Notes under the pieces: generated by a model
Told to the model about the DNA's origin: nothing
The model's database searches: none
The model's input: only the letters and a program-made list of their open reading frames with translations
Source: an uncultured archaeon
GTDB taxonomy: Archaea > Iainarchaeota > Iainarchaeia > Iainarchaeales > CSSED10-239
Direction: 5' to 3'
Length of the DNA: 32,000 bases
Assembly: GCA_964591795.1 (NCBI GenBank)
Contig: CAZQEL010000002.1
Span: 6,312 to 38,311, forward strand
In this document: in pieces, positions 4,516 through 31,922 of the stretch
Layout of the letters: every line of letters starts with the position of its first letter
Position numbering within the stretch: the first letter of the stretch is position 1
Position numbers and translations under genes: made by a program

Positions 4516-4872
4516 ATGTTTACAAAAAAACAAAAAGGTCAAGTTTCAGTTGAAATGTTAATTATTTTAGGTGTAATTATACTTGTTGCTGTTGTTTTTG
4601 TATCATATTATTTATCAGTAATAAATAAAAATATAGATAAAACAAGTAATGTTCCTACTGGAGTTCAAGTTAATAATTTAATAGAAAATAGTTTTAATAA
4701 TCCTAACCTTACTTCTGCACCTACAAGTTTAGCTACTTGTGGAAATGGAACTATTGATCCTATGGAAGTTTGTGATTATCTTATTTTCCCATTTGGATTA
4801 ACTTGCGATAATATAACTGGTGCAGGTACAACTTTAGTGTGTACTGATTGTCTTGAAATTACTTGTACTTAA
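4516..4872 (+). CDS. archaeal type IV pilin (class III signal peptide, Epd-like) with a C-terminal Cys-rich CGNG...C-D unit
   Basis: The N-terminus MFTKKQKG|QVSVEMLIILGVIILVAVVF matches the prepilin pattern (K-G, then Gln at +1, then a hydrophobic helix). The C-terminus is CGNGTIDPMEVCDY...LTCDNITGAGTTLVCTDCLEITCT. Its N-terminal 45 aa are paralogous to the 30756-31922 protein. Confidence 0.8.
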   Translation: MFTKKQKGQVSVEMLIILGVIILVAVVFVSYYLSVINKNIDKTSNVPTGVQVNNLIENSFNNPNLTSAPTSLATCGNGTIDPMEVCDYLIFPFGLTCDNITGAGTTLVCTDCLEITCT

Positions 4873-7076: not shown

Positions 7077-7626
7077 TATTGATCCTATGGAAGTTTGTGA
7101 TGATACTAATTTTCCAATAGGTATTACTTGTACTTATGTTGTTAGTTCTGGTACAACTTTAGTGTGTACTGATTGTCTAGAAATTACTTGTAGTTAATTA
7201 TAATTATTGCTTTTTATTAAAAAAAGAAAAATCGTTTTTACTAATATTAGTTTTAATCAAATAACTAGTTTATTAAAATTAGTAATTGTTAAAAAAAAGT
7301 AATTGTGAAGAATAAAATTATTTTTCTTCTTCAACTCTATTTTCTTTTATTCTCTTCATTGTTCTTGGAGAGAATGATTCTTTATACCATTTTTTCCAAA
7401 TGATTAAAATATCATCATAATTAGTTTTACCGTGTTCTTGAAGATATTCTTCTTTTATAAGTAATAATTTATTATGTGCATAAACTGTGTTTTTAGCTTC
7501 CAAAAGTTCAATACAATCATTTTCGTTTGCAAAATCTACTTGGTATTTTTTTTCTTTTGCACGCATACTTATGTTATCCCACATCTCTTCAATTGTCATA
7601 CCAGTAAGTTTTGATATTTTTGAAAA
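7077..7626. repeat. right copy of the ~550-bp direct repeat
   Basis: See 4752-5302. This copy is continuous with the full-length ATPase gene. Confidence 0.9.
7081..7197 (+). pseudogene. promoter-less 3' fragment of a variant pilin gene
   Basis: It reads DPMEVCDDTNFPIGITCTYVVSSGTTLVCTDCLEITCS*. The full pilin reads DPMEVCDYLIFPFGLTCDNITGAGTTLVCTDCLEITCT*. The ends are conserved and the central 16 aa differ. The frame is open back to 7003, but there is no Met and no class III signal peptide. Confidence 0.8.
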
Positions 7627-9633
7627 GATTTCAGAATCTTTAAGTGCATCTTCATTTAAAACAAGTGTATCTTTAGCAGCATCGTATTCCATTAAATTAA
7701 GAATACCTCCTTCTGATTCTGGATCTGTATTCCAATGTTTACGTACTTCTGTTATTTGAACAATTCTTTTATGACTCTTAAGTGAGCCTTTAAATCTAAT
7801 TGGCTTAGCTACAACAATAATATCTGTTGCTTTAAATGAAGTGGTAGGTACTCCTAAATCATTAACTACACGATCCCACACAGCATAAGCTGAGTCAGCG
7901 TGTATGGTTCCCATAACTACATTCCCTGCAGCACCAATTCTCATAGCTTCATATAGTACTTTTGCTTCAACTGACCTTACTTCTCCTACAATTAATGCAG
8001 AATCACCTAATCTAAGAGCTGTTCTAAGTGCATCTTCAGGTTTCATTTCAGTTGTTGCTGTTTCTCCAGTTCCACCAATGGCTGATCTTGTTTTAAGTCT
8101 TTGAGCATTAAAACCAATATCTTTCATATACATTATTGGTAGTTCTAAAGTGTCTTCTTGAACAATTATTCTTGCATTTTGTAAAATTTCAAGCATTAAA
8201 GCAGTCATTAATGATGTTTTTCCTGCACCACGTGATCCTGCTACTAAAAGAGTTGAATTGTTATCAATAAAAAAACTTAATAAACCAGCTGCTAATGGGT
8301 TTAATGAGTTTACATTTATTAGTTGTGGAAGTGTCCACGGTGTATCCTTATGTAATCTAAATGCAAATGCAATACCGTCTGTTGCTAAAGGATGACCAAT
8401 AATTGCAATTCTTGTGTTTAAATCAGGCATATCAAAATCAAGAACAGGATGTGCATCATCAAATGGTCTTCCTGACATTGCTCTTATTTTTCCAACAAAA
8501 CTTTCAGCGTCTTTTTCTGGATAGTGTATGTTTGTTTGACACTGTCCATATTTTGAATGAACTACGTATATTGGTTTTGCTCCTAGTGGAGAATCTAAAT
8601 ATACATCAGTTAATTGTCTATCTGATAATAATAATTCTAAGATACCATAACCAATAGTGTATCTTGTAACTATTTCTGATAGTGAATAAACATCATCAGG
8701 TGATAATTCAATACTATATTTTTTAGCAATATCAATTATTGTTGATTGATATATTCTTTGGAAATATTTTCTAGTACTCTCTCCTGTTGTAAGAGTTACT
8801 TTTCCTGGTTTGTAATTAGCAACAGTATCTTTTGTTTTTGTTAATACAAAATAATGATCTGGAGACAATGTATATTCAGGTGGATTAATTAAATAAATAT
8901 ATTCTACTTTTTCTGGATGTCTAAATATTTGTACTGATGTGTTAAGTACTTGGTATTCATCAATTAACTCTAAAGTATCCATGTCTTTAAAAGTTAATTT
9001 TGATCCAATAAATGCTGGTTTTATTTCTACATCAAATATTGTTCTATAGATGTCTGTAACTTCAGAAAAATCAGTTATTTTTAATAAAATTGGTTTTATT
9101 TTTTTTAAAAATGTAGTTTTTTCATACATTTCTTTAAGTCTTAAAAGATGTTTTGTATTTTGTGTAAAACAGATTTCACAAGGTTGACCGTTTCTCTCTT
9201 GTGCTCGGTTTTTTGTATTTTCTATTTCTTTTAAAAGGCTAATGTATGAAGCTATTGGATCATAGGACAATAATTCTTTTGCAAATTTAATAATGTTATT
9301 ATGTCTTTCTGGATAACATTCATCACAGTCAATTTCTTTAACACCTAAGTGTTGAGATACCCATACTGCTCTATTTTCAAACTCTAAAAGTAAATTCACC
9401 ATTTCTTTTAAATATTTTGTTTGTTCTTCATTATAATTTCTTTCATAAACTTCAGCTAATATAATTTCATCAGCATCAACAGTTTCTAGTATTTTCATTG
9501 CATGATATCTACATCTAGGATCTTCAGCAATGGATGTATTATAAGGGCAATTTCTACAATCAAAAACTAGTTTTTTTTTAGAGCCTTCTGTTGTAACAAC
9601 ATAATCTCCAACTGTGAATTTTCCTATTTTCAT
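7318..9633 (-). CDS. type II/IV secretion (FlaI/VirB11/PilB superfamily) ATPase, extended 771-aa form
   Basis: Walker A is VAGSRGAGKTSL and the Walker B region is RIIVQEDTLEL. It also carries ALIVGEVRSVEA...GNVVMGTIHADSA. The N-terminal ~170 aa hold Cys pairs (CRNCPYN...CRYH, CDECYPERH, CEICF). A ~100-aa C-terminal extension is also present. Confidence 0.85.
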   Translation of the reverse strand: MKIGKFTVGDYVVTTEGSKKKLVFDCRNCPYNTSIAEDPRCRYHAMKILETVDADEIILAEVYERNYNEEQTKYLKEMVNLLLEFENRAVWVSQHLGVKEIDCDECYPERHNNIIKFAKELLSYDPIASYISLLKEIENTKNRAQERNGQPCEICFTQNTKHLLRLKEMYEKTTFLKKIKPILLKITDFSEVTDIYRTIFDVEIKPAFIGSKLTFKDMDTLELIDEYQVLNTSVQIFRHPEKVEYIYLINPPEYTLSPDHYFVLTKTKDTVANYKPGKVTLTTGESTRKYFQRIYQSTIIDIAKKYSIELSPDDVYSLSEIVTRYTIGYGILELLLSDRQLTDVYLDSPLGAKPIYVVHSKYGQCQTNIHYPEKDAESFVGKIRAMSGRPFDDAHPVLDFDMPDLNTRIAIIGHPLATDGIAFAFRLHKDTPWTLPQLINVNSLNPLAAGLLSFFIDNNSTLLVAGSRGAGKTSLMTALMLEILQNARIIVQEDTLELPIMYMKDIGFNAQRLKTRSAIGGTGETATTEMKPEDALRTALRLGDSALIVGEVRSVEAKVLYEAMRIGAAGNVVMGTIHADSAYAVWDRVVNDLGVPTTSFKATDIIVVAKPIRFKGSLKSHKRIVQITEVRKHWNTDPESEGGILNLMEYDAAKDTLVLNEDALKDSEIFSKISKLTGMTIEEMWDNISMRAKEKKYQVDFANENDCIELLEAKNTVYAHNKLLLIKEEYLQEHGKTNYDDILIIWKKWYKESFSPRTMKRIKENRVEEEK

Positions 9634-10966: not shown

Positions 10967-10995
10967 TTGAATATGTGTTGTTTTATAATTATATT

Positions 10996-13349: not shown

Positions 13350-14678
13350 ATGGATATAAATAACTCAAAAGAAATATTTGGAAAAGTAATGAAAGAAACA
13401 GGTAAATCTGAATCAGAACTACTTGATCTTCTTGAAAAAATAAAAGAAAAATACCAAGGTCTATTGTCTGAGGTTGGAGCAAACATAATGCTCGCTAAGC
13501 AATTTGGTATTAATTTAGAAGCAAGTCATCCTACTTCTGCTATTGTAAAAATAAATGATTTAGAAAACATAACTGATGCTTCACTTTATGCAAGAGTTAA
13601 ATTTATACCAGCTCCTAGAGGTTATACTCAAAAAGATGGAACCAAAGGAAGAATACAAGCAATATATGTTTTTGATGAAACAGGTGAAATAAAAGTAAAT
13701 CTTTGGAATGATCAAGCAGATTTAGTACATTCACTTAAACTTGATAAAAATTCAAAAATTTTAATAAAAGACACATATATTACAACTTATAATGATAAAA
13801 AAGAACTTTCTTTAAGACAGGGTGGAATGATTACAAAAGATCCCGTTGATTTTCCAGTAATTGTACCAAAGGAAGAAAATTTAGTTGATGTATCTAACAT
13901 AAATCAAACTGAAAGTTTAATTGATGTTATTGGAAGAATAACAGTTATTTATAATAAAAATTCATTTAAAGATAAAGACGATAAAGATCGTTTTGTTTTA
14001 AACTTTGAAGTATCAGATGGAATTAAATCTTTAAAGTTTGTAGCATGGGATCCTTGGCCAGATTATATTTTAGAAAACTTTGGAAAAGGTGATTTAATTA
14101 AAATGTCTGATTTAAGAGTTAAAGAAGGCCTTTATGATTTAGATATTAATCTAAATTGGTTTTCAACAGTTATTAAAGACCCAGTTACTACTAAAAAAAT
14201 ACCATCCTTAACTGAAATTTTAGCACTAACTAAATCTTTAGAAGAAGGAAAGATTGAATCTTTAGAAGATGGACGTAATTATTCTTTAGATGGTTTAATT
14301 GTTTCAATTAATAGAAATAATTTAAGATATTTTAAATGTAAAGATTGTAATGAAAAAGTACAAATAATTAATGGCGACTTCATTTGTGAAAAATGTAGTA
14401 AAATTGTTGATGTTTCAGTTAATTTATTTGGAAGTGTAGATATTGATGATGGTACAGGAATTTTAAAGGTTGTTTTCTTTTCTGAGCTTGCTGAAAATGT
14501 ATATAAGTTAAAGAAAGAAAATTTAAAGAAAGAACTAACCGAAGAAGACAAATTAACAATATTTGATAAACTTGAAAATGAACTTCTAGGTAAAAAAGTT
14601 AAAATTTCAGGAAGAGCAAAACTCAATAGTTTTTCTTCAAGAATTGAATTTTTAGCTGATAGCTTTGAAGTTTTATAA
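13350..14678 (+). CDS. rpa: replication protein A (archaeal RPA/RFA, multiple OB folds and a zinc ribbon)
   Basis: The N-terminus SELLDLLEKIKEKYQGLLSEVGANIMLAKQFGINL resembles the N-terminal helical domain of methanococcal RPA. Repeated OB-like blocks are present (ARVKFIP..., IDVIGRITVIY..., LDGLIVSINR...). The C4 zinc ribbon is CKDCNEKV...CEKCSK. Confidence 0.8.
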   Translation: MDINNSKEIFGKVMKETGKSESELLDLLEKIKEKYQGLLSEVGANIMLAKQFGINLEASHPTSAIVKINDLENITDASLYARVKFIPAPRGYTQKDGTKGRIQAIYVFDETGEIKVNLWNDQADLVHSLKLDKNSKILIKDTYITTYNDKKELSLRQGGMITKDPVDFPVIVPKEENLVDVSNINQTESLIDVIGRITVIYNKNSFKDKDDKDRFVLNFEVSDGIKSLKFVAWDPWPDYILENFGKGDLIKMSDLRVKEGLYDLDINLNWFSTVIKDPVTTKKIPSLTEILALTKSLEEGKIESLEDGRNYSLDGLIVSINRNNLRYFKCKDCNEKVQIINGDFICEKCSKIVDVSVNLFGSVDIDDGTGILKVVFFSELAENVYKLKKENLKKELTEEDKLTIFDKLENELLGKKVKISGRAKLNSFSSRIEFLADSFEVL

Positions 14679-16573: not shown

Positions 16574-16597
16574 GAATAAACTAATTTTAGTTTATTC
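16574..16597. terminator. 10-bp perfect hairpin between convergent corA and fcl (GAATAAACTA / TAGTTTATTC, 4-nt loop)
   Basis: The arms are 16574-16583 and 16588-16597. The right arm overlaps the fcl stop codon. It could act for both convergent transcripts. Confidence 0.4.
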
Positions 16598-17533
16598 TAA
16601 TATTCTTTCAACTTGTTCTTTATTATTTATTATTTCTAGTACCCCTTTACTTAAACTTCTTGGACTAAAGTTAGGGTATACTGATTTTAATCTTTGAATG
16701 TCTGTTCTTTTCTCAAAAGTACCATCTGGTTTAGATGCATCCCATTTAATTTCTCCAGACCAACCAATTTCTTTTCTAATTATTTCTGCAATTTCTTTTA
16801 TTGAATAATCAAAACCTGTGCCTATGTTTATTATTTGTTCTGAAGAATAATTATTCATTAAATACACTAATGCATCTGCACAATCATCACTGTATAATGC
16901 TTCACGTCTAGGTGTACCTGTTCCCCATAGCATTACTTCGTTACCTTTTTCTTTTGCAAGTAATATTTTTTTAATTAATCCTGGAATCATATGCCCATTT
17001 TCAAGATCATATGTGTCATTAAATCCATAAAGGTTAGTTGGCATAGCACAAATTGTATCAATATTATATTGTTTTCTATATAATTGGCATGCAACTATTC
17101 CAGTTCCTTTAGCAACTGCATATCCTTTGTTTGTTTCTTCAAGTTTACCTGCCATGAATCTATCTTCGTTTATTGGTTGAGGATTTTCTCTAGGGTATAT
17201 ACATGTAGACCCAGTGAATAATACTTTTGCTTTAGGGCAATTATTTTTAGTCGCTTCTAATAAATTTAAAATCATTGTTGTATTTTGATATAAAAAATCA
17301 GCTGGTCTTTGACTATTTCCTTGTATTCCTCCAACAAGACCTGCAACCATGAAAATATACTCTGGGGTTTCTTTTTTTAAATATTCTTCAATTTCTGATT
17401 TTTCTAATAAATTAAGTTCCTTACTTCTTGGTTTTAGAATATTATTGTGTCCTTGTTTTGTTAATGTTCTATATACTGCACTTCCAAGTAATCCATTCCC
17501 ACCTAAAAGTAATATTTTTGATTCTGTTTTCAT
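16592..17533 (-). CDS. fcl: GDP-L-fucose synthase (GDP-4-keto-6-deoxy-D-mannose 3,5-epimerase/4-reductase)
   Basis: It has the Rossmann motif LLLGGNGLLGSAV and the catalytic YAVAK (YxxxK). It also has PTNLYG and a PRREALYSDD-type block typical of Fcl/WcaG. It lies directly downstream of gmd. Confidence 0.9.
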   Translation of the reverse strand: MKTESKILLLGGNGLLGSAVYRTLTKQGHNNILKPRSKELNLLEKSEIEEYLKKETPEYIFMVAGLVGGIQGNSQRPADFLYQNTTMILNLLEATKNNCPKAKVLFTGSTCIYPRENPQPINEDRFMAGKLEETNKGYAVAKGTGIVACQLYRKQYNIDTICAMPTNLYGFNDTYDLENGHMIPGLIKKILLAKEKGNEVMLWGTGTPRREALYSDDCADALVYLMNNYSSEQIINIGTGFDYSIKEIAEIIRKEIGWSGEIKWDASKPDGTFEKRTDIQRLKSVYPNFSPRSLSKGVLEIINNKEQVERILE

Positions 17534-17543
17534 TATTTATCAC

Positions 17544-18599
17544 CTAGTATAATATTTTGTCATTATTTTTAATTAAATCATAATCAGATTTAACCATTAG
17601 CTTTACTAACTCTTCAAATTTAGTTTTTGCACTCCAACCTAATTTTTCTTTAGCTTTAGATGCATCTCCTAAAAGTATTTCAACTTCAGTTGGTCTGAAG
17701 AATCTTTCATTTATTTTAATTATTGTTTTTCCTGTGTTTGAATCAATTCCTATTTCATTAACTCCAGTTCCTTTCCAGGTAATTTCAATATCTAATTCTT
17801 TACAAGAAAGTTCAATAAATTCTCTAATAGAGTGGGTTTCTCCAGTTGCAATTACAAAGTCATCTGGTTTTTCTTGTTGGAGCATAAGATGCATTGCTTC
17901 AACATATTCTTTTGCATATCCCCAATCTCTTTTTGCATCTAAATTTCCTAATTCTAGGTTTTCTTGTAATCCTAATTTTATTTTAACAAGCCCTATTGTT
18001 ATTTTTCTAGTTACAAAATTAAATCCTCTTCTTTCTCCTTCGTGATTGAATAGAATTCCATTACAAGCATACATGTCATATGCTTCTCTATAGTTTTTAA
18101 CCATCCAAAAACTATATAATTTAGCAACACCATATGGACTTCTAGGGTAGAAGGGTGTGTTTTCAGTTTGAGGTGTTTCTAAAACTTTTCCAAATAATTC
18201 TGAGGTTGATGCTTGATAAAATTTAGTTTGTTTTTCAAGACCTAATACTCTTATTCCTTCAAGTAACCTTAAGGTTCCAATTGCATCTATTTGTGCTGTA
18301 ATTTCTGGAATTTCAAAAGAAACTCTTACATGGCTTTGTGCTGCAAGATTATAAACTTCGTCTGGTTGTATTAGTTTTAAAAGATTTAGGATAGATGTAG
18401 TATCTGTTAAATCTCCATAGTGTAAAAATAGTTTTTTATCTAATATTTCTTTATTATTATACAGATGATCAAGTCTCCATGTGTTAATTACACTTGCTCT
18501 TCTAATTAGTCCGTGGACAATATATCCTTTTTCTAAAAGCAATTCAGTTAAATGAGATCCATCTTGTCCTGTTATTCCAGTTATCAATGCTGTTTTCAT
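17544..18599 (-). CDS. gmd: GDP-mannose 4,6-dehydratase
   Basis: [40 protein letters not shown] is the canonical Gmd N-terminus. STSELFG and YGVAKLY are also present. Confidence 0.95.
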
Positions 18600-18694
18600 A
18601 TATTATATGTTAATTAGATATTTTTTTATAACTATTTATTTTCATTTAATTTTATTTAGATATGTTTTTATATATTTTAATATATATATATAAT

Positions 18695-19372
18695 ATGCAA
18701 AAGTTACTTTTTTCAAAAGAAAATCCTTTAAAATTAATTAATACTAATAAGAAAGTTATTTTTAATTTTTTAAACGTTGAAAGTCTTTGGCATTTTAAAA
18801 ACACTAAATATTATAACTCTCTTATTTTAAACAAAAATAATATTAATTTTCCTGATGGTAAGTTTGTTTCTAATAAATTAAAAGTACCTCAGCAAAGAGG
18901 CCCTTCATTTACTAAAAATTATTTAAAATCTCTTGAAGCTAAATCTAAAAAGCATTTTGTAATTGGAAATTGTACTGGTAAAGAATTATCTGTTGTTACA
19001 AATATACCCTTAAAGAATATTAAAGTATATTCTCCTTCCTTTATTAATAAAATTATTTTTTCAGACGTAGAAAAAAATAAAATTGCATCTTTATTGGCTT
19101 TATTTAAACCTGATTTTGTGTGGGTTGCTATTGGTGCACCTAAGCAAGAAATTTTATCTAATCAATTATATTTAAAATATGCATGTAATTATATAAATAT
19201 AGGCGCTGCAATTGATTTTTTAACTAATAAAAAATTAGAGGCTCCTAAGTTTTTTAGAATTTTATATTTAGAATGGTTTTATAGGTTAATTACAGATTTT
19301 AAAAGATCTAGAAAAAAAGTTTTTAGAAGTATAGTTGGTTTGAGATATTTAAAATATATTTCAGTTAAATAA
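18695..19372 (+). CDS. WecB/TagA/CpsF-family glycosyltransferase (GT26)
   Basis: It carries FPDGK..., PDFVWVAIGAPKQE and GAAIDFL...EAP...LEWFYRL, the conserved blocks of GT26. The start is taken at ATG 18695. Confidence 0.75.
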   Translation: MQKLLFSKENPLKLINTNKKVIFNFLNVESLWHFKNTKYYNSLILNKNNINFPDGKFVSNKLKVPQQRGPSFTKNYLKSLEAKSKKHFVIGNCTGKELSVVTNIPLKNIKVYSPSFINKIIFSDVEKNKIASLLALFKPDFVWVAIGAPKQEILSNQLYLKYACNYINIGAAIDFLTNKKLEAPKFFRILYLEWFYRLITDFKRSRKKVFRSIVGLRYLKYISVK

Positions 19373-19389
19373 ATAATAAATTGAATGTT

Positions 19390-20502
19390 ATGATTATAAA
19401 AAAAAGAGTATTATTTTTAGTTAGATTACCTCCTCCTATGCATGGGGCTGCAAAAATGAATTCTTTGTATTTAAATAGTAAAATTTTAAAAAATGAATTT
19501 AATATTCATCATATTAAATTAAACTCTTATTCTTCATTAGTGAATAATATTTTTAAATATTTTTTAGTATTATTTGGTTTTTTCAAAGTTTTGTTATTAT
19601 TATTATTTAAACTAATTTTTTTTAAACCTAAATTAGTTTATTTTGAAATTGCACCTAAAGGAGGTGCATTTTATAGAGATAGTATTTATTTATGGATTTG
19701 TAAATTATTTTTTAAGAAAGTTGTTTGTCAATTTCATGCAAAAGGGGTTTATTCAGAATTAAGTTTAAAATTTAAAATTAAATATTATAAATCAGTTTTT
19801 AAAAATGTTAAAGTTATATTGTTATCTGAAAGTTTATACTCTGATGTTTCTTTAGTTATACCTAAATCAAATATTTTTTATTTGCCAAATGGTATTAAAG
19901 ATGAGCTTACAGATATTGGTTTTAAGAAGTTATGTTCTATTAAAAAAGATTCAAAAATATTAAATTTATTATACTTATCAAATATGATCGAAACAAAAGG
20001 GTCTTTAGATGTATTAAAAATATGTGATTTATTAAAAAATAAGGGTATTAAATTTAAATGTAATTTTGTAGGTAATTGGGATTCAGATGTTTTTAAAGAA
20101 AAATGGTTTTTAACACTTAAAAAATATAATTTAACTGAAAATTGTTTTTATTTAGGTCCTAAGTATGGTTCTGAAAAAAATCAATTATTAAGTAATGTTG
20201 ATTATTTGGTTTTCCCTACTAAATATCCAATGGAATGTTATCCACTTGTAATTTTAGAGGCTTTTATGTTTGGGGTGCCTGTCTTGTCTTATAATAATGG
20301 TGCAATTAAAGATATAATTAACCAAAACTATTTAGGCTTTGCGTCTTTAAATAATAATTATATTGATTTATATAAATATATAATAAATAATAAATTTACT
20401 TTGTCTCAAAAGATAAAAATTAGAAATATATTTATACAGAATCATTTATTAATTAAATATGAAATAACTTTAAAAAATATATTTTTAAGTGTGATTAAAT
20501 GA
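19390..20502 (+). CDS. group 1 glycosyltransferase (GT4-like)
   Basis: The C-terminal block is GSEKNQLLSNVDYLVFPTKYPMECYPLVILEAFMFGVPVLSYNNGAIKDII (E-x7-E region). The stop TGA overlaps the next gene's start (ATGA). Confidence 0.75.
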   Translation: MIIKKRVLFLVRLPPPMHGAAKMNSLYLNSKILKNEFNIHHIKLNSYSSLVNNIFKYFLVLFGFFKVLLLLLFKLIFFKPKLVYFEIAPKGGAFYRDSIYLWICKLFFKKVVCQFHAKGVYSELSLKFKIKYYKSVFKNVKVILLSESLYSDVSLVIPKSNIFYLPNGIKDELTDIGFKKLCSIKKDSKILNLLYLSNMIETKGSLDVLKICDLLKNKGIKFKCNFVGNWDSDVFKEKWFLTLKKYNLTENCFYLGPKYGSEKNQLLSNVDYLVFPTKYPMECYPLVILEAFMFGVPVLSYNNGAIKDIINQNYLGFASLNNNYIDLYKYIINNKFTLSQKIKIRNIFIQNHLLIKYEITLKNIFLSVIK

Positions 20503-21335
20503 GTTTTAAAAAAATTATAACTTCAATTAAAATTTTAAGAGATATTGTTGTATTCTGTTATAGATTAAAAATAGTTTTTAACAATATTATTAATAATCTA
20601 TATTTATCTTTTAAATGGTTATTTATATCTCGAGAAACAACTAATTTTACTTATGATTTAACTAAGCTTAACAAAATTTATTTAGCTCAAACAATTTCTC
20701 ATATAGTTGACAAATCTTTTGATGAAATTTATAATTACATTTTAGAGGTTGAAAATGATAATTCTTTAAAAAAACATATTATAACTGAAACTAAAAAAAG
20801 TGATCAAAGATTTAAATCTAATAAAACCGTCTATTTTGGAAGAAGAATAGGTTGGTATGCTATAGTACGGGCTATTAAACCAAAGGTTATTGTAGAAACT
20901 GGTGTTGATAAAGGTCTAGGTGCTTGTATATTAACTGCTGCATTAATAAAAAATAATTCTGAAGGTTATAAAGGTTATTATTACGGAACGGATATTAATC
21001 CAAAAGCAGGTTTTTTACTTAAAAATAAGTATAAAAATTTTGGAGAAATTTTATATGGTGATTCTATTAAGTCTTTAAAACATTTGTCTAAAAAAATTGA
21101 TTTATTTATTAATGATAGTAATCATTCTGCAGATTACGAATATAATGAATATAAAGTCATTTTAAATAAACTTTCTAAAAATTCGATTATATTAGGTGAT
21201 AATGCTCATTATAATTCTAAATTATTTTCTTTTTCAAAAAAATATAATAGATCTTTTTTATTTTTTTCTGAAGATCCTAAAAATCATTTTAAAAATGGAG
21301 CAGGAATTGGTTTTTCATATATTATAAATAAATAG
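20499..21335 (+). CDS. class I SAM-dependent methyltransferase (Methyltransf_24-like)
   Basis: It carries VIVETGVDKGLGACIL (motif I-like), YGTDINP and LFINDSNHS. Confidence 0.6.
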   Translation: MSFKKIITSIKILRDIVVFCYRLKIVFNNIINNLYLSFKWLFISRETTNFTYDLTKLNKIYLAQTISHIVDKSFDEIYNYILEVENDNSLKKHIITETKKSDQRFKSNKTVYFGRRIGWYAIVRAIKPKVIVETGVDKGLGACILTAALIKNNSEGYKGYYYGTDINPKAGFLLKNKYKNFGEILYGDSIKSLKHLSKKIDLFINDSNHSADYEYNEYKVILNKLSKNSIILGDNAHYNSKLFSFSKKYNRSFLFFSEDPKNHFKNGAGIGFSYIINK

Positions 21336-21343
21336 TGATGTAA

Positions 21344-22033
21344 ATGGATGTAAAAAAGTTATATAATAATATTGTAATTAAAAAGGATAGTTCTTTTTTA
21401 AAGTTTAATTTAAATAGTTGGCCTAAAACTAGATATGAAGCAGCAGTTAAATTTATAAATATTAAACCTACTTCAAAGGTATTAGATGTTGGTTTTGGGA
21501 ATGGAGATTTACTTAATTTTATTTTTCAAAAAACAAAATATACTTATGGTGTAGAAGTTTCTAAAAAAAAATTAATGTATGTGAATAATTTATTACCATT
21601 AAAAGCTAATTTATCTTTACAAGATATTAGTAATAAAACAAATTTTAAAAATGATTTTTTTAATATTATTTTTTTAACTGATGTTTTTGAACATATTATA
21701 GATAGATATTCTGTAATGAATGAATTAAAAAGAATATTAAAAAAAGATGGAATTATAGTTATTATTACACCTAATATCGCTAAATTAAAATCCAGAATAA
21801 GATTATTATTTGGAATTTATCCTTTTACCTCAGAAGATAGAGTTTCAGAGAAAAAAAAGTTCATTTATGATGGTGGACATATTCAATGGTATACTTTTAA
21901 AACCATCTCTAGTTTAGCAAAACAATTTGATTTAAATATTGAAAAAAGATTTGGATATGGGTTATTTGGACAGCTACATAACATTTATCCTTCTTTATTG
22001 TCAGGTTCTATAGCTATTATTTTAAAAAAATAA
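21344..22033 (+). CDS. class I SAM-dependent methyltransferase
   Basis: Motif I is VLDVGFGNGDL. It also carries FLTDVFEHI and LKKDGIIVIITPN. Confidence 0.75.
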   Translation: MDVKKLYNNIVIKKDSSFLKFNLNSWPKTRYEAAVKFINIKPTSKVLDVGFGNGDLLNFIFQKTKYTYGVEVSKKKLMYVNNLLPLKANLSLQDISNKTNFKNDFFNIIFLTDVFEHIIDRYSVMNELKRILKKDGIIVIITPNIAKLKSRIRLLFGIYPFTSEDRVSEKKKFIYDGGHIQWYTFKTISSLAKQFDLNIEKRFGYGLFGQLHNIYPSLLSGSIAIILKK

Positions 22034-22045
22034 ATTTTGATATAT

Positions 22046-22966
22046 ATGACTTATAATATACCTATTTTGTTTTTAGTTTTTAATAGACCAAAAGAAACTA
22101 AAAAATCTTTGCAAGAAATAAAAAAAATAAAGCCTACTAAATTATATGTTGTTGCAGACGGGCCAAGAAAAAATAATTTAAATGACGATTTAAATTGTAA
22201 ATTAGTGAGACAAATTATAAATGATGGTGTTGATTGGGATTGTGAAGTTAAAACTATTTTTAGAAATAAAAATTTAGGTTGTAGAAATTCAATTTCTTTA
22301 GGAATTACTTGGTTTTTTAAAAAAGAAGAGATGGGAGTCATTTTAGAAGATGACTGTATACCTAATAACACTTTTTTTACATTCTGTGAAATGATGTTAT
22401 TAAAATATAGACTCAATAGTCCAGTTATGCATGTTTCTGGCAATTCATTTATAGATGATAGTATTAGAAATAATTATTTAGATGGAGATTATTTTTTTTC
22501 TAAATTTCCACATATTACTGGATGGGCTACTTGGAGAAGAGCTTGGGATTTATATGATGCGGATTTAATTGATTATAATAAAAAAAGTGCTAATGTAATA
22601 TCAAAAAACAACACTCAAATTTTAGAAAAATTTTATTGGAAATTTATTTTTAATTCAGTTTATTCTAAAAAAATTAATTCTTGGGGTTATATTTGGTTAT
22701 ATAGTATTTGGCAAAATAATGGGTTGTCTATCCAGCCAAAATATAATCTAGTGAAAAATATAGGTTTCGGTGAAAATGCACTTCATACTAAAAATAGTAT
22801 TAATGGTTTGTTAAAAAATTATGATTATCGTTTAAAAAAACATCCTAAATTAATTAAATCTAATAAATTAATAGATGATTTTATTTCTAAAACTTATTAT
22901 AACATATCTATAAAAGGTTTATTTTTAAAAGTTATAACTAATTTTAAATTTTTATTTAAAAAATAA
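22046..22966 (+). CDS. nucleotide-diphospho-sugar transferase (GNT-I-like family)
   Basis: IPILFLVFNRPKETKKSLQEIKKIKPTKLYVVADGPR and ILEDDCIPNNTFFTFC match the pattern of GNT-I/HlpA-like glycosyltransferases. Confidence 0.55.
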   Translation: MTYNIPILFLVFNRPKETKKSLQEIKKIKPTKLYVVADGPRKNNLNDDLNCKLVRQIINDGVDWDCEVKTIFRNKNLGCRNSISLGITWFFKKEEMGVILEDDCIPNNTFFTFCEMMLLKYRLNSPVMHVSGNSFIDDSIRNNYLDGDYFFSKFPHITGWATWRRAWDLYDADLIDYNKKSANVISKNNTQILEKFYWKFIFNSVYSKKINSWGYIWLYSIWQNNGLSIQPKYNLVKNIGFGENALHTKNSINGLLKNYDYRLKKHPKLIKSNKLIDDFISKTYYNISIKGLFLKVITNFKFLFKK

Positions 22967-22975
22967 TCTTTTTAA

Positions 22976-23827
22976 TTATTCTTTTTTAAAAATATAGTAT
23001 TTTAATTGAACTTCAATTTCTTGAAGTATATCTTTAATGAGTATAATTGGTTTTAAATATATTTCATTAGTAAATCTTTTTGATTCTATTAAATCATATA
23101 ATTTATTTTTTATAAAATTTATTTTTTTAAATATGTTATTAGTTTTGGGTGGCGAGATGATATTTGTTGAAGTATAATACCCATATATACTTCCTTGATG
23201 CACTAGTGGTTTATTAATCCAATATATTTTTAATTTATTTTTTTTGCAAACGTATTTAAATTCCTCATCCATAGGGATAGTAAACTGATATGTTTGTTTT
23301 AAAATTGTATTCAAACATTTTTTATTTATTAAATATGCTCCTGTTCCCCAAGATCCTCTTTTATTTTTAAATAACCCTTTTTTTTTAAAGGTTCTATATT
23401 TATTGTCATTTAGTAAATCTAGAAAACAAACATCTCAATCCAATCTGTTTAATTTTAAAATACATTCTTTTATTTTTTTTAAAAAGTTTGGTTCTATTAT
23501 TACATCATCTTCCAAAATTAATGCATAGTTATAATTTGATTGGTATATTTTCATCCATATTTTGTAATGATTTAAATTTAGATTTATACTTGCTTTTGAT
23601 AAATTATAAAATGGGGTATTCTTTTTGTTTAAGTATTTAAATTTATTTAACCATATTTGTTTATTTGGTATGTATCTTTTTTTAATTGTGTCTTGAGTAT
23701 GTTCATTTTTGTTTTGAATAATAAAATTAACCTTTTGTTTAATTGATTTAAATGTTTTGTTTAAATAATTGTATCTTTCAACTAAGGGTTTGTAATTAAT
23801 AATATATATTTCAACCATATTTTTCAA
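22976..23827 (-). pseudogene. GT25-family glycosyltransferase interrupted by one in-frame TGA (23435-23437)
   Basis: ORFs 23435-23827 and 22976-23314 are in the same frame. The read-through gives ...KIKECILKLNRLD*DVCFLDLLNDNKYRTFKKKGLFKNKRGSWGTGAYLINKKCLNTIL... GT25 blocks are present: IYIINYKPLVERY, NHYKIWMKI...YALILEDDVII and WGTGAYLI. Confidence 0.7.
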
Positions 23828-23904
23828 AATTATTTTTATTTTTTTAATTGTTATTTAAAGTATAATCCTAATAGTTTTTATATTTATTGGAGTTATATTA
23901 TTTC

Positions 23905-24738
23905 ATGAGGATTGTTAAAATTACAAGTGGGTTAGGAAATCAGTTGTTTCAATATGCATTTGCAAGAGTTGTGTCTATAGAAACTAATGAAAAAGTAATG
24001 TTAGATATTAGTAATTATAAATTTTATAGTGATAGATTATTTTCATTAAATTTATTTAATTTATTTGAATTTAAATATATAAATTCGTATTTTTATTTTA
24101 TTTTATTCATTTTTATTTATAAGCTTAATAAATTTTGGCCTTATTTATTTAAAAATATTTATTTTGAAAAATATCCTTGTAATTATAATTCAAAATTGCC
24201 TTCTAATAAGTTTTATTTTCAAGGTTATTTTCAATCAGAAAAATATTTTAATAAATATAGACCTTTACTTTTAAATGAAATTACTTTAAAAAAACCATTA
24301 AATTCAAAATATATTTCAATATTAAATAATAATAATAACACAGTTTCTATTCATGTTAGAAGAGGTGATTATTTAAATGAATTAAATAAATCTATCTTTA
24401 TTACTTTTTCTTCTGATTATTATTTTGATGCAATTAAATTAATAGTTAAAAAAGTTAAAAATCCATTCTTTTTAATTTTTTCTGATGATATTGTGTGGTG
24501 TAAAAAAAATTTAAATATTGATTATCCTCATCTTTTTATAAATTCTTCTTCGCCAGAACAAGACTTAATTTTAATGAGTAAATGCAAACACAATATTATT
24601 TCTAATAGTTCATTTAGTTGGTGGGGTGCTTGGTTAAATAAAAGTAGAAATAAAATTGTAATTGCTCCTAAAAAATGGATGAATAAAAATTTAATTTATT
24701 ATAAAGATATTTGTCCAAATTATTGGGTTAGAATTTAA
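23905..24738 (+). CDS. alpha-1,2-fucosyltransferase (GT11)
   Basis: The GT11 signature blocks are present: SGLGNQLFQYAFAR, HVRRGDY and ISNSSFSWWGAWL. The start is taken at ATG 23905. Confidence 0.9.
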   Translation: MRIVKITSGLGNQLFQYAFARVVSIETNEKVMLDISNYKFYSDRLFSLNLFNLFEFKYINSYFYFILFIFIYKLNKFWPYLFKNIYFEKYPCNYNSKLPSNKFYFQGYFQSEKYFNKYRPLLLNEITLKKPLNSKYISILNNNNNTVSIHVRRGDYLNELNKSIFITFSSDYYFDAIKLIVKKVKNPFFLIFSDDIVWCKKNLNIDYPHLFINSSSPEQDLILMSKCKHNIISNSSFSWWGAWLNKSRNKIVIAPKKWMNKNLIYYKDICPNYWVRI

Positions 24739-25514
24739 TTTTTAGTAAACCAGAAAAGGCCTGTTCCATAATTCCTATTTTTGGTTCTATATTTATCCTG
24801 GAGTTTTCCATTATAAATATATTTTTCTTCTACTAATTTGCAATTATGAAATTTTGTTAATATATATTCTTTTGTAAATGCTCTGTGTGCATTAAAATAA
24901 ATAGTGTTTTCATTATGCACAGGGACACTTATAAATATATTTCCTTTTTTTGATGTTACTCTTATAATTTCTTTAATTGCTTTTTCACTCCCTAATTCAT
25001 CTAATTTATCTCCATATCTTCCTAATCCAATATGTTCTATGACACAAAGACTAGAAATTGATTTTATGGAATTATTTTTAAATGGAAGAGTTGTAATATC
25101 TCCTTTTATGAAATTTAAATTTTTTAATTTTATTGGTAATGGTCTTATATCAACCATATATGTTTTTGTGAATTGAGATATTATGCCAATTGTTTTTGCA
25201 TTACTACCGACATCGTAATGTTCTTTTGGATTAAGTTCAAATATTTTTTTTGCAGCCCATGTATCTTGATAAAAATAGTCTATGGCCAAAGGAGTTTCTT
25301 TAGTATTATCATTTATACAAGGAAAAAGGTATTTTATTTTAAACTCTTTATTTTTTTTAGTTAATATTAAATCTTTTAAATATTTACTATTTTTTTTTAA
25401 ATAAGTAATTATTTTAAATTTAAAATTTTCTTTTATTGACAGATATATAAAATATGTGGATAATAATATTTTTGAGTTTTCAATTTTTGATTTAATTTTA
25501 TATTTTATTTTCAT
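24735..25514 (-). CDS. SAM-dependent methyltransferase (DUF268/Methyltransf_11-like)
   Basis: It carries YDVGSN...MVDIRP, GDITTLPF, SLCVIEHIGLGRYGD and KKGNIFISVP. Its 3' end overlaps the GT11 gene end by 4 nt (convergent). Confidence 0.65.
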   Translation of the reverse strand: MKIKYKIKSKIENSKILLSTYFIYLSIKENFKFKIITYLKKNSKYLKDLILTKKNKEFKIKYLFPCINDNTKETPLAIDYFYQDTWAAKKIFELNPKEHYDVGSNAKTIGIISQFTKTYMVDIRPLPIKLKNLNFIKGDITTLPFKNNSIKSISSLCVIEHIGLGRYGDKLDELGSEKAIKEIIRVTSKKGNIFISVPVHNENTIYFNAHRAFTKEYILTKFHNCKLVEEKYIYNGKLQDKYRTKNRNYGTGLFWFTKN

Positions 25515-27496: not shown

Positions 27497-29635
27497 ATGG
27501 TAGATATAGACCTTGAAAGTGAACTTGAAAATTTTGATATTAAAGAATCAAAAAGTATATTGGTTGACGAATATATTGATATTTTAGTTGATTTCTTTGA
27601 TGAGGTTTATAAAAAAGAAATAGAAAGGCTAGCATCTAATTACCCAACTGAAAAAAGCCTAGATATTGATTATAAAAAATTAGAAGATTTTGATTTAAAT
27701 CTAGCAGAACGACTTATAGCGTCTCCAAATATTATTTTTGAATCAGCTAACGCTGCTATCAAAAAAATAGATTTAGGAACACTTGATAGTGAAATTGAAG
27801 AAAAATTTGCACCTATTGTAAGATTTTTTAACCTACCTGAAGAATATAGAGTAGCCATAAGAGAAGTTGGTTCTGATCATTTAGCTGATTTAATATCAGT
27901 TGAAGGAACAATAAGAGTTATTACTGAAAAATTAGAAAAATTAACCGTAGCCTATTATGTTTGTAGAAAATGTTCTTCTCCCATAATATTAATGCAAAAA
28001 TCACAAACTTTAGCAAAACCAATTATGTGTGGTGAATGTAAATCAAGAGATTTTGATCTTGATTTAGATCAATCTAAATTTATTGATTATCAAAAAATAC
28101 AAATTCAAGAACCTCTTGAAAGTTTAAAAGGTTCAGAACAAGCAAGTAACATTGATGTTTATTTATCTGATGATTTAGTTAATAAATGTTCAGCTGGTGA
28201 CAAAATAATAGTTACTGGTATTTTAAAATTAAGACCTCCTAAGGGAGACACTAATATTTATTCAAGATATTTAGTAGCAAACCATGTTGAAAGAATAGAT
28301 CTAGAATATGAAGAGTTAAAAATATCTGTTGAAGAAGAACTTGAAATAAAAGCTCTTTCAAAAAAAGAAGATATATATGATCTTTTATCAAAATCTGTTG
28401 CTCCAAATATTTTTGGACACGAAGTTGTAAAAGAAGCAGTTACTTTACAAATGTTTGGTGGTGTTAAAAAGGAAATTGCAAGACAAAAGTTTAGAGGAAA
28501 TATTCATGTTCTTTTAGTTGGTGATCCTTCTACTGGTAAATCTAAAATTTTAGAATATGCTAATCTTTTAGCTCCAAAAAGTATTTATGTTGCTGGAAAA
28601 ACAGTTTCTGGTGCTGGTCTTACAGTTTCTGCTGTTAAGGATGAATATGGTGAAGGTGGTTGGACATTAAAAGCAGGTGCTATCATTTTAGCAAGTGGTG
28701 GTATAGCAATGATTGATGAGTTTGATAAAATTGGTGCAGATGATAGGTCTTCTCTTCACGAAGCAATGGCACAGTCAACTGTGTCTGTTTCAAAGGCTGG
28801 TCTTTATAGTAAATTTAGAGCTGATACTTCTGTTCTTGCTGCAGCTAACCCAAAATACAATAGATTCGATCCTTATAAAAATCCACTTGAACAAATAGAT
28901 CTTCCTTTTTCTTTATTATCAAGATTTGATCTTTATTTTGTAATTCCTGATATTTTAGATAAAAAACTTGACACAGATATTGCAAAACACGTTTTAAGAA
29001 CACAAGCTCTTGCTGAAAAACTTTCTGGTAGAGATAAAACAATATCTAAAGAAGAGCTTAGTAGTATTGAAAAAGAAATATTTCCTGCAATTGATCCTAA
29101 TATTTTTAAAAAGTTTGTAGCTTTTGCAAGACAGAATATAAGACCTGTGTTATCTCAAGAAGCATCTGATATTATTTTAAAATTTTATGTTGATCTTAGA
29201 GATATGGGTCGTAAATCTAAAAGTTTTACTGCAACACCAAGACAGCTTGAAGGTTTAATAAGATTATCTGAAGCAAGTGCAAAAATAAAACTTAAAACAA
29301 AAATTGATTCAAGCGATGCTGAAAGAGCAATTAGAATTTTTAAAACTTCTCTTGAGCAAGTTGCAATGGATAAAGAAACTGGTAAAATTGACATTGATAT
29401 TTTACAGACAGGTCAATCTCAAAGTGAGAGAAACTTTATTAAAATAGTTTTAAAATATTTAAAAGATTTATCTTTAAAAGATTCAATTTCAACAAAAGAT
29501 TTTATTGAGTTTACAACAAAAGAAGGTCATGATAAAGATAAAGTTTTAGAAGCAATTTCAAAACTTAAAAAGATTGGTGATATTTACGAACCTAGAACTG
29601 GTCTTTTAAAAGCAACTGAGCCTGATGCCTTTTAG
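27497..29635 (+). CDS. mcm: MCM replicative helicase
   Basis: The zinc motif is CRKCSS...CGECKS. Walker A is LLVGDPSTGKSK, Walker B is AMIDEFDK, and the arginine finger is SRFDL. A C-terminal winged-helix-like tail is present. At 712 aa there is no sign of an intein. Confidence 0.95.
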   Translation: MVDIDLESELENFDIKESKSILVDEYIDILVDFFDEVYKKEIERLASNYPTEKSLDIDYKKLEDFDLNLAERLIASPNIIFESANAAIKKIDLGTLDSEIEEKFAPIVRFFNLPEEYRVAIREVGSDHLADLISVEGTIRVITEKLEKLTVAYYVCRKCSSPIILMQKSQTLAKPIMCGECKSRDFDLDLDQSKFIDYQKIQIQEPLESLKGSEQASNIDVYLSDDLVNKCSAGDKIIVTGILKLRPPKGDTNIYSRYLVANHVERIDLEYEELKISVEEELEIKALSKKEDIYDLLSKSVAPNIFGHEVVKEAVTLQMFGGVKKEIARQKFRGNIHVLLVGDPSTGKSKILEYANLLAPKSIYVAGKTVSGAGLTVSAVKDEYGEGGWTLKAGAIILASGGIAMIDEFDKIGADDRSSLHEAMAQSTVSVSKAGLYSKFRADTSVLAAANPKYNRFDPYKNPLEQIDLPFSLLSRFDLYFVIPDILDKKLDTDIAKHVLRTQALAEKLSGRDKTISKEELSSIEKEIFPAIDPNIFKKFVAFARQNIRPVLSQEASDIILKFYVDLRDMGRKSKSFTATPRQLEGLIRLSEASAKIKLKTKIDSSDAERAIRIFKTSLEQVAMDKETGKIDIDILQTGQSQSERNFIKIVLKYLKDLSLKDSISTKDFIEFTTKEGHDKDKVLEAISKLKKIGDIYEPRTGLLKATEPDAF

Positions 29636-29757: not shown

Positions 29758-30590
29758 ATGAATCAAAATAAAAGTATGTCTGTATTTGGAAATAAAAATA
29801 TTAGAAAAATTTGGTATAATGATGAATAGTGGTTTTCAGTAGTTGATGTAATTTATGCATTAACCGATTCTTTAACACCAAGACGATATTGGTCTGATTT
29901 AAAAATAAAAATTAAAAATGAGTCTGAACTTGAGTTGTACGATAATATCGTACAACTTAAATTAAAATCATCTGATGGAAAATTATATGCAACTGATTGT
30001 TCTAATACAGAGGGGTTATTTAGAATTATCCAATCAATTCCATCTAAAAAAGCAGAATCTTTTAAATTATGGTTAGCAAAAGTTGGTTATGAAAGAGTAC
30101 AAGAAATTGAAGATCCTGAATTAGCTCAAAAGAGAATGAAAGAAACATATAGAGCAAAAGGATATTCTAATAATTGGATTGAAAAAAGAGTTAGAGGAAT
30201 TGCAATTAGAGATGAACTTACTGATGAATGGAAAAATAGATCTATATCTAAATCAAAAGATTTTTCAATTCTTACAGCCCAAATATCAAAAGCAACTTTT
30301 AATATGACTCCAATTGAATATAAAAAATTTAAAGGTTTAAAAAAAGAAAATTTAAGAGATCATATGACTGATTTGGAATTAATATTTTCTATGCTTGGAG
30401 AAAGAGTTACAACTGAAATAACTAGAAACGAAAATAAGCAAGAATTTGATGAATGTAGTGACGCAGAAAAAAGAGGTGTAAAGTTGCTGGTAATGCAAGA
30501 AAAGAAACTGAAAATGAAATTGGTTCATCAGTAACCACTAAAGATAATTATTTAGTTAAACCTAAAAAAAATAAAAAATTTAAATCTTAA
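29758..30590 (+). pseudogene. dinD: Bro-N / DNA-damage-inducible protein D (DinD)-like gene with an in-frame TAG and a C-terminal frameshift
   Basis: From ATG 29758 it reads MNQNKSMSVFGNKNIRKIWYNDE*WFSVVDVIYALTDSLTPRRYWSDLKIKIKNESE..., with the TAG at 29827-29829. Near 30479-30483 the frame must shift by 1 nt to continue as VAGNARKETENEIGSSVTTKDNYLVKPKKNKKFKS*, ending at 30590. This is the canonical DinD tail. Confidence 0.75.
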
Positions 30591-30755: not shown

Positions 30756-31922
30756 TTGGAAAAAAGATATAAAGCTCAAGTTTCTGTAGAAATGTTAGTA
30801 ATGGTTGGAATTGTTGTTTTAGGCGGTATTCTGTTTGCAACTTTTTATTTATCTTCTGTTAATAAAAATATAGATAAAACAACTAACCTTGATGTGGATT
30901 TCACTAATTTAATTGGTGATGAAAACATGGGATCATTTCCAAGTTTAGATTCAAATAATGGTAACACACCTGGTGATGGTTTTTGTGGTGATGGTATTGT
31001 TGATTCTTTTTTATTAGAACAATGTGAACTACCTGGTTCAACTGCTTTTTGTAATAGTTTATCTCCATCTTTTACTGGTGGAAATGCTACATGTACTGGA
31101 TCATGTATTTGGGATTTATCTTCTTGTATTGGTTCTTCAACTTGTGGTGATGGTATTTTTAATGCTTTCACAGAAGTTTGTGATTATGATAATTCTGCTG
31201 GTAGTTATCTTTATAATTCAAGTTATGATTGTTCAACAAATCCTGATTATCTTTCAGGTGTTGTAGGTCCTTATATTAATGGTGGAGCAATAACTTGTAG
31301 TTCTTGTAATGTTGATTACACTGGTTGTGATTATAATCCTGGTAATTTACAAGATTATATTTTAATGTTAGAACCAACAATTGCATCTGCAAATATTGAT
31401 ATATCTCGTTCTACAAATTTAAGTATTGATTTTAATGGATCTACTTGGGTTGATGTAAATGTTTCTGTATTAGTAGATGGTCCTATGGGTCCAGTTAATT
31501 CAGATAAATGTGAATATGATAATGTTATAATTCCTGCAAATCCACAAGGTAGTTTTGTACATAGATTTTTAAGTACAACCTCAACTGAAGAATTTATTAA
31601 AGATGTAAGTTGTTCTGAAAATGGAGTTTATACTTTTAGTTTTAAAGGAATTGATAATAATGGTAATACTGATCAAAAAGACTTAATTTTTACTGTTCCT
31701 CAAGAAGCACCTCCTTTATTTGCATTATGTAAGAATCAAACAAACACAGAAGGAACTATTAGTAATTGGTGTATTAATTATTTATCTGATACACAAACAA
31801 ATGCAGAAGGAACAGTTACTTTCTTTATTAATCAACCTGATAATTTAGAATATAGTAGTTTAGATCCTATTTGTCAAATTACTAATGATGGAAGTATTTG
31901 TTTTTCATTAGGTTTTACATAA
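30756..31922 (+). CDS. large type IV pilin-like adhesin (class III signal peptide, Cys-rich CGDG repeats and a C-terminal beta-rich domain)
   Basis: MEKRYKA|QVSVEMLVMVGIVVLGGILFATFYLSSVNKNIDKTTN is paralogous to the 4516 pilin N-terminus. It is followed by CGDGIVDSFLLEQCELPG and CGDGIFNAFTEVCDYDN units and many Cys. It has a TTG start with GAGG 8 nt upstream. An internal duplicate QTNTEGTIS / QTNAEGTVT is present. Confidence 0.75.
   Translation: MEKRYKAQVSVEMLVMVGIVVLGGILFATFYLSSVNKNIDKTTNLDVDFTNLIGDENMGSFPSLDSNNGNTPGDGFCGDGIVDSFLLEQCELPGSTAFCNSLSPSFTGGNATCTGSCIWDLSSCIGSSTCGDGIFNAFTEVCDYDNSAGSYLYNSSYDCSTNPDYLSGVVGPYINGGAITCSSCNVDYTGCDYNPGNLQDYILMLEPTIASANIDISRSTNLSIDFNGSTWVDVNVSVLVDGPMGPVNSDKCEYDNVIIPANPQGSFVHRFLSTTSTEEFIKDVSCSENGVYTFSFKGIDNNGNTDQKDLIFTVPQEAPPLFALCKNQTNTEGTISNWCINYLSDTQTNAEGTVTFFINQPDNLEYSSLDPICQITNDGSICFSLGFT

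Follow-up and report, generated by a model that had tools for sequence, protein, structure and literature searches.

In the solved archaeal pilins, a β-sandwich head follows directly after the N-terminal helix. Archaeal pilins of the Epd type are substrates of the pilin-specific peptidase EppA (PMC3875500). Modular type IV pilins have been described for bacteria, for example in Streptococcus sanguinis, in which PilB carries a vWA module and PilC a lectin module; the survey that catalogues them is concerned with bacterial IPR012902 proteins only (PMC8179133). Type IV filament (TFF) loci of archaea also encode large proteins, termed "adhesin or minor pilin", which have a signal peptide and cysteines, are rich in Ig folds and are proposed adhesins (Makarova et al. 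2016, PMC4858521; 10.64898/2026.04.22.720090). A cysteine-rich repeat of the DUF4215/TIGR02232 type occurs in extracellular proteins that are often adhesive or very large (PMC4736985; bioRxiv 10.1101/2023.03.06.531300). The subject of this study is a pair of genes in a stretch of 32,000 nucleotides from an uncultured archaeon (assembly GCA_964591795.1, contig CAZQEL010000002.1; the whole stretch is called the window, and positions are given in its numbering). They encode a long (388 residues, aa) and a short (118 aa) protein, in both of which a predicted class III prepilin-type signal is joined to six-cysteine modules similar to DUF4215. All the parts belong to known kinds, from the PF04021 signal and the DUF4215/TIGR02232 repeat through the Ig-like sandwich to the TFF ATPase and the M6 protease. 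What appears to be new, relative to those portions of the archaeal TFF, modular-pilin and DUF4215 literature that were available, is the fusion of a prepilin signal with Gln at +1 to modules of the DUF4215 type. The same applies to a helix with no pilin head modelled beside it and to a strict cassette with an M6 protease gene, often accompanied by a DsbA-like gene. The value of the system lies in this combination and in the conserved cassette and not in a new principle.

Both open reading frames (ORFs) lie on the + strand where an earlier note, made from the sequence of the window, had placed them. The two genes and the parts of their products are as follows (pLDDT, predicted local distance difference test score).

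30756..31922 (+): gene of the long class III-signal, six-cysteine-module protein, 388 aa; ORF with a TTG start
30756..30776 (+): predicted leader peptide MEKRYKA, putative cleavage before Gln8; PF04021 match at aa 6-31, Q-x-S-x-E motif
30777..30881 (+): hydrophobic α1 helix and NKNIDKT, aa 8-42; AlphaFold2 helix over aa 6-38, G18, G23, Y31 and N36 invariant in 14 homologs
30882..30983 (+): linker rich in G, P, N and D, aa 43-76; disorder predicted (pLDDT 35-49), length and sequence variable in the alignment
30984..31127 (+): DUF4215/TIGR02232-like six-Cys module 1, aa 77-124; phmmer E down to 1e-21, hhalign 98.1%, pLDDT 75-84 over aa 90-130
31143..31328 (+): six-Cys module 2, aa 130-191, lengthened by an insertion; tandem repeats in other proteins are matched by profile positions 76-190
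31353..31700 (+): predicted Ig-like β-sandwich, aa 200-315, with invariant C252 and C286; AlphaFold2 pLDDT 78-96
31701..31919 (+): C-terminal four-Cys subdomain, aa 316-388, with the near-conserved end motif CFSLGF[TN]; pLDDT below 50
4516..4872 (+): gene of the short class III-signal protein, 118 aa, ATG start; leader MFTKKQKG/Q, helix, linker and one six-Cys module
4738-4866 (+): single six-Cys module of the short protein, aa 75-117; TIGR02232 15.6 bits, phmmer E = 1e-15

Each protein begins with a basic leader that ends in Gly or Ala and is followed by Gln at +1, Ser at +3, Glu at +5 and about 25 hydrophobic residues. The two N-termini had been described as nearly identical, which overstates the case: K[GA]QVSVEML and NKNIDKT are indeed the same in both, but over the N-terminal module as a whole 22 of 40 residues agree. 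In a six-frame motif scan of the window, K-[GA]-Q-V-S-V-E-M-L with the hydrophobic pattern was found in these two ORFs only. Against the Pfam model PF04021 (Class_IIIsignal, gathering cut-off 23.7 bits), the check that the earlier note had proposed, the short protein passes with 28.3 bits (E = 1.6e-6, aa 7-32), whereas the long protein stays below the cut-off with 18.5 bits (E = 0.002, aa 6-31); with these E values, the likeness between the two is beyond chance. Among relatives, the ortholog of the short protein in L001 scores 29.3 bits, the 814-aa paralog P0135 25.0 bits and a 990-aa paralog 22.9 bits (related stretches of DNA and proteins are cited by our own labels, L and P, respectively). 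An alignment of 14 sequences shows Q8, S10 and E12 to be conserved at 90% or more, while outside the N-terminal signal the homologs diverge to 30-45% identity. The N-termini of both proteins are therefore best described, from their sequences, as predicted class III prepilin-type signals of the PF04021 kind, as the earlier note had read them, with the short protein and two relatives passing the model. In sequence they bear the hallmarks of type IV pilin-like precursors known from archaea, of the Methanococcus Epd/EppA kind, and cleavage is predicted before Gln8 in the long protein and before Gln9 in the short one. The long protein contains 18 Cys residues and the short protein 6. The TTG start of the long gene is kept in its orthologs and has a GAGGA Shine-Dalgarno-like site 6 nt upstream, which is itself preceded by an A/T-rich, TATA-like stretch.

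The Epd-type/PF04021 proteins of Methanococcus maripaludis have the same basic leader, the same Gln+1, Ser+3 and Glu+5 and the same hydrophobic helix. The window proteins differ from them in that the helix leads into a flexible linker and DUF4215-like modules, with no modelled head, and no epd-like cluster, platform or EppA gene was seen in the window. A second kind of prepilin-type signal, KKA/ISPLIAT (similar to Pilin_N), occurs in related genomes on proteins of 114-456 aa (L009 2436-3806, -; L008 315-1589, -; L005 6024-6368, +), one of which is a DUF285 protein with 12 Cys residues.

The three cysteine-containing strings quoted in the earlier note are all present, but the short motif given there corresponds to only the first third of a complete module. 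The whole unit has six cysteines in 43-62 residues, with the pattern C-G-[DN]-[GN]-x5-7-E-x-C-[DE] ... C ... G-x3-C-x2-3-C-x4-6-C, and module 2 of the long protein is enlarged by an insertion of 15 residues. Curated models recognize these units weakly. In the long protein no Cys unit was matched by any Pfam or NCBIfam model even at E ≤ 10; the short protein reaches 15.6 bits on TIGR02232, below the cut-off of 20.8 bits; weak matches to curated models were found for the Cys units of four of the six family members (best E = 0.0058); and the member P0039 scores 21.8 bits on DUF4215 (PF13948), for which the cut-off is 27 bits. Coverage by the curated models is largely confined to the first half of the unit, at model positions 2-28 of 38.

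Because direct scans of the Cys units of the long protein with these models gave nothing, the link to DUF4215/TIGR02232 was made through profiles. Homology searches were made with a word index of 5.8 billion proteins and, exhaustively with a profile, against 1.84 billion representatives. The profile, built from six members of the long family, matched 6270 proteins at E ≤ 1e-3, with E values down to 1e-128. In most of these, positions 76-190 of the profile are matched repeatedly along the same protein, in up to 56 stretches. Multi-repeat matches that were sampled pass the cut-offs of both DUF4215 (45.7, 44.7, 35.7 and 32 bits) and TIGR02232 (24.7-76.4 bits). Single modules from the window were also used as phmmer queries (Z = 1.8e9), giving E = 1e-21 for module 1 of the long protein and E = 1e-15 for the module of the short protein. 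When modules of the family were aligned by hhalign with repeat units of proteins positive for the curated models, the match had a probability of 98.1% (E = 9.9e-14) and covered the whole unit. With strong profile evidence from hmmsearch, phmmer and hhalign beside weak direct scores, the window modules are placed as divergent members of the DUF4215/TIGR02232 superfamily. The likeness to the Myxococcus-type repeat that had been noted earlier is thus borne out at the level of profiles and by transitive homology, but not by direct TIGR02232 or DUF4215 scores, which are under the cut-offs. Proteins with the "Myxococcus cysteine-rich repeat" (TIGR02232/PF13948) have in common with the window proteins the start of the module, C-G-[DN]-[GN]-x5-7-E-x-C-D, and an extracellular context; the window proteins differ in carrying one or two copies and not long tandem arrays, and in their sub-threshold curated scores. 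The family gives this module an archaeal and pilin-linked context. Searches of Protein Data Bank (PDB) sequences gave non-significant matches only, which are leads at most: with the repeat profile, the "CGNxxVDxGEECD" segment of ADAM17, at the start of the ADAM disintegrin (E = 0.95), and with the family profile, one pilin (5v0m, E = 0.088).

The structure of the long protein was predicted with AlphaFold2 in two runs, from 6 sequences (mean pLDDT 48) and from 14 sequences (mean pLDDT 64); in the second, the model is unreliable in the linker, in parts of module 2 and over the last 70 residues. Residues 200-315 are confidently predicted as a generic Ig-like β-sandwich. This agrees with the Cys-containing, β-rich C-terminal region proposed before, the tail behind it being unmodelled. 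In that C-terminal subdomain, C325, C339, C373, C382 and G386 are invariant among the 14 sequences. A weak OmpL47-type match covers the sandwich region in four of the six family members, and Foldseek searches of the PDB returned only generic sandwiches of the Ig-like, PapD-like and macroglobulin types at E values of about 1e-4, with target-length-normalized TM-scores up to 0.68 for what are small domains. Neither model gave a specific adhesin among its Foldseek matches. The "many" N-x-S/T sequons ascribed to the long protein do not amount to an excess: six are present and 6.8 are expected from its composition, so enrichment in sequons was rejected.

The long family is small, since the word-indexed search found five relatives (full-length proteins P0002-P0006) and the exhaustive search about eight further representatives (for example, P0010, P0039, P0073 and P0153); where the source is known, it is confined to Iainarchaeota/Diapherotrites. 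With the short protein as query, the word-indexed search returned no match other than the query itself, and its ortholog in L001 (19584-19952) was located through synteny. Eight shorter relatives that were aligned contain from none to two Cys modules per protein, and the larger paralog P0068 has five or six module starts of the CG-[DN] type. The same N-terminal module also heads paralogs of 783-990 aa, in which it is combined with at least one Cys module and with Flg_new_2, CHB_HEX_C_1 and Fn3_assoc domains. At least three such carrier proteins (122, 386 and 814 aa) are encoded in a single genome of 671 kb. By analogy, this set of paralogs follows the "one carrier, many cargos" pattern of the bacterial modular pilins. 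The design is the same as in that group, with an N-terminal pilin-type carrier, a linker and modules, and with paralogs that combine one carrier with different cargo. The differences are that the host is archaeal, a Gln+1 class III signal takes the place of IPR012902, no full pilin fold is modelled before the cargo, and the cargo is a six-Cys repeat with an Ig-like domain. The idea of the modular pilin, so far catalogued for bacteria, is in this way extended to archaeal proteins with class III signals.

The strongest contextual clue is the conserved gene next to the long gene. Directly 3' of it, starting at about 32007, some 85 nt beyond the end of the window, lies a gene for an M6 (InhA-like) zinc metalloprotease with a Sec signal and an HExxH motif (L006 5865-7655); the downstream flank of the window was read through a match to its MCM gene. 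An M6 gene follows the long-family gene on the same strand, with gaps of 59-85 nt, in L006 (the lineage of the window), L011 (with a 74% ortholog), L001/L002/L003, L004, L012/L013 and L016, the last of which has two tandem M6 copies. Directly upstream of the 814-990 aa paralogs, an M6 gene is likewise found in L005, L014 and L015. The adjacency extends to every member of the long family with readable flanks (five ortholog and two paralog lineages); in L010 the contig breaks off at this point and gives no information. A gene for a membrane-anchored DsbA-like oxidoreductase (Thioredoxin_4) divergently adjoins the long-family gene in L001 (9219-9674, -) and in L012/L013 (L012 3431-4081, -; this copy has an N-terminal hydrophobic anchor segment) and lies about 6 kb away in L010 (190-864, -). 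The corresponding place in the window holds no DsbA-like gene and is occupied by a Bro-N-like gene (29935-30534). Such a neighbour is compatible with extracellular disulfide formation. A domain common to the C-terminus of the long protein and the M6 protease was considered and rejected (best E = 1.5). The C-terminal ICFSLGFT of the long protein (aa 373-388) and GGICFPPGENPFSLGLT in the N-terminal region of the M6 protease (L004, aa 51-75) align non-significantly (E = 3.8). The archaeal TFF "adhesin or minor pilin" proteins lie inside ATPase/TadC loci, whereas the long gene belongs to a separate two-gene cassette with the M6 gene. Neither a DUF4215-type module nor pairing with M6 is described for those proteins in the available portions of PMC4858521 and 10.64898/2026.04.22.720090.

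A gene for an assembly ATPase is present in the window near the short gene, together with remnants of a duplication and a gene for an S-layer protein.

7318..9633 (-): type IV filament assembly ATPase gene, 771 aa, GspE2/CpaF/FlaI family; PF00437, 61.6 bits
7087..7197 (+): 3' fragment, lacking a start, of another short-pilin allele; runs toward the ATPase gene (convergent) and is part of the duplicated segment
4994..5275 (-): duplicate of the 3' part of the ATPase gene, next to the intact short gene; translation equal to the C-terminus of the ATPase except for one residue
1876..4341 (+): gene of an S-layer protein, with 175 nt between it and the short gene downstream; PF05124, 53.8 bits

The nearest relatives of the ATPase with solved structures are Archaeoglobus GspE2 (2oap), CpaF and FlaI, with E values from 6e-30 to 5e-22. 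Identity with the 120 relatives listed is 55-89%, and those that are named come from Candidatus ainarchaeum, Diapherotrites, Micrarchaeota and an unclassified archaeon. The N-terminus of the ATPase is extended by about 300 aa and contains several CxxC clusters. In three genomes its gene is syntenic with RPA, MCM and S-layer genes and is never beside a platform (T2SSF) gene. A direct repeat of about 430 nt, 4872-5301 and 7196-7625, with 3 mismatches, brackets an AAA_14/DUF4143 gene (5448-6785) and is continued leftward for about 150 nt at about 74% identity over the 3' end of the pilin gene (repeat with extension, 4725-5301 and 7050-7625). The repeat leaves a fragment of each gene beside the intact copy of the other, from which it follows that the short-pilin gene and the ATPase gene were once direct neighbours in a tail-to-tail arrangement. 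It may represent a real insertion or duplication, possibly with a silent pilin cassette, or else a strain-chimeric assembly. An independent contig from ENA (L007) ends inside the ~430-nt repeat.

We consider it somewhat probable that both are class III-signal, pilin-like surface proteins from which the leader is cut and whose helix enters either an ATPase-built filament or the membrane, the short protein being abundant and the long protein a low-copy partner of the M6 protease. A prepilin peptidase of the EppA/PibD type would remove the leader of 7-8 residues before Gln, and through the retained helix the protein would either join a thin pilus-like filament that the ATPase builds or be anchored in the membrane. 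The short protein, with a mature size of about 110 aa made up of helix, linker and one disulfide knot, is a candidate for the abundant subunit, and the TTG-initiated long protein could be a modular subunit of low copy number. Once oxidized outside the cell, the Cys modules might act as rigid spacers or as binding elements, and the long protein may act with the co-encoded M6 protease, for example by tethering proteolysis to, or directing it at, the cell's own surface or a partner cell. An adhesive role, such as that of the pilus-tip adhesin put forward in the earlier note, is likewise hypothetical. A number of observations weigh against this reading. The PF04021 score of the long protein is below the cut-off. 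Its model, at an overall pLDDT of 64, has a disordered linker in place of a globular pilin head beside the helix, and no archaeal pilin was found among the Foldseek matches of either model. Of the pilus machinery, the assembly ATPase was found in the window, but the two genes that the earlier note had proposed to look for, one for a platform protein (T2SSF/TadC/FlaJ) and one for an A24 prepilin peptidase, were seen neither among the window ORFs of at least 90 aa nor in about 4.5 kb upstream or about 1.8 kb downstream, nor within 10 kb on either side of the orthologous ATPase genes of L008 and L009. The link to the M6 protease at the level of the proteins consists of gene adjacency alone, without sequence similarity. 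Finally, class III signals are also found on archaeal surface proteins that form no filament, such as the Sulfolobales bindosome (10.64898/2026.04.22.720090). As regards the peptidase, a presenilin-type SPP gene near the ATPase orthologs was considered and set aside, not being an A24 peptidase. Type IV pilus genes have been reported for Diapherotrites reference genomes (PMC8561730).

Several of these points would also suit surface-anchored proteins that form no filament. In these the signal would serve only for export and membrane tethering, as in bindosome-type substrate-binding proteins, and the proteins, lying beneath or inside the S-layer, would be stalks, spacers or docking sites, for example for the M6 protease. 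We regard this as a real but less likely possibility. The disordered linker directly after the helix is what such proteins would show, as is the lack of a platform gene beside the ATPase in three genomes; the short gene stands directly 3' of an S-layer gene in the window and near one in L001, and the 783-990 aa paralogs place the same N-terminus before CHB_HEX_C_1, Fn3_assoc or Flg_new_2 domains. The conservation of the N-terminal module with Glu+5 across paralogs is, however, typical of subunits that assemble together, and a TFF assembly ATPase gene originally adjoined the short gene, both of which argue against this reading. The sub-threshold score of the long protein and the lack of a peptidase gene in the sequence that could be read could also be accommodated by ordinary Sec-exported or signal-anchored Cys-rich proteins with a coincidental prepilin-like motif. 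This is the least likely of the readings considered, since the short protein and two relatives pass PF04021, 14 homologs that are otherwise 30-45% identical keep K-[GA]-Q-x-S-x-E with little or no change, and the hydrophobic stretch directly follows the charged leader with no Sec-type A-x-A site behind it. The strict same-strand adjacency of the M6 gene in all lineages with readable flanks would suit a long protein that serves the protease chiefly as substrate, pro-form partner or inhibitor; the protease would free or activate the Cys-rich ectodomain, and adhesion would not be its function. Such a role is unlikely in our judgement: adjacency is the whole of the evidence for it, the large paralogs have the two genes in the opposite order, and neither similarity between the long protein and the M6 protease nor a known interaction motif was found.

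The pilin-like reading can be carried further, to a version that is speculative and, in our view, rather doubtful. One Gln+1 carrier helix would display a set of cargos on a thin filament whose major subunit has a single 43-residue disulfide knot as its head, and the 388-aa family with its M6 protease would form a filament-displayed device, both adhesive and proteolytic, with which partner cells are attacked or fed upon. The fragment at 7087-7197 could then be a silent cassette by which the exposed knot is varied through recombination. To our knowledge, no solved archaeal pilus has a head that consists of one 43-residue disulfide knot.

The source organism belongs to the Iainarchaeota/Diapherotrites, a DPANN lineage with contigs of 0.67-1 Mb. 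The G+C content of the window is about 24%, archaeal replication genes are present (MCM, 27497-29635; RPA, 13350-14678), and relatives of the long protein and the ATPase come from metagenome-assembled genomes named Candidatus Iainarchaeum ("ainarchaeum") or Candidatus Diapherotrites. We know of no cultivated member of the Iainarchaeota. The earlier note had assumed an episymbiotic lifestyle, and nothing was found that establishes it for this lineage. Little is known of the way in which DPANN archaea make contact with substrates or with other cells, and the family provides testable candidates: two pilin-like proteins, one small and one large, with an assembly ATPase, an M6 protease and a DsbA-like helper.

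Elsewhere in the window, two tandem genes for much alike cold-shock-domain proteins of 63 aa (PF00313; 26233-26424 and 26819-27010, +) lie upstream of the MCM gene. A glycosylation island (16592-25514) has the lowest G+C content of the window (0.20-0.21) and contains genes for a GDP-mannose 4,6-dehydratase, an epimerase, a WecG/TagA-type glycosyltransferase, GT1, GT25 and fucosyltransferase-like GT11 enzymes and several methyltransferases. Between the ATPase and RPA genes (9815-12674) are a Fic/DOC-domain gene (9815-10843) and a nucleotidyltransferase-NUDIX fusion (11544-12674), and the equivalent variable spot in related genomes is occupied by AbiEii, HicAB and AAA_14 genes.

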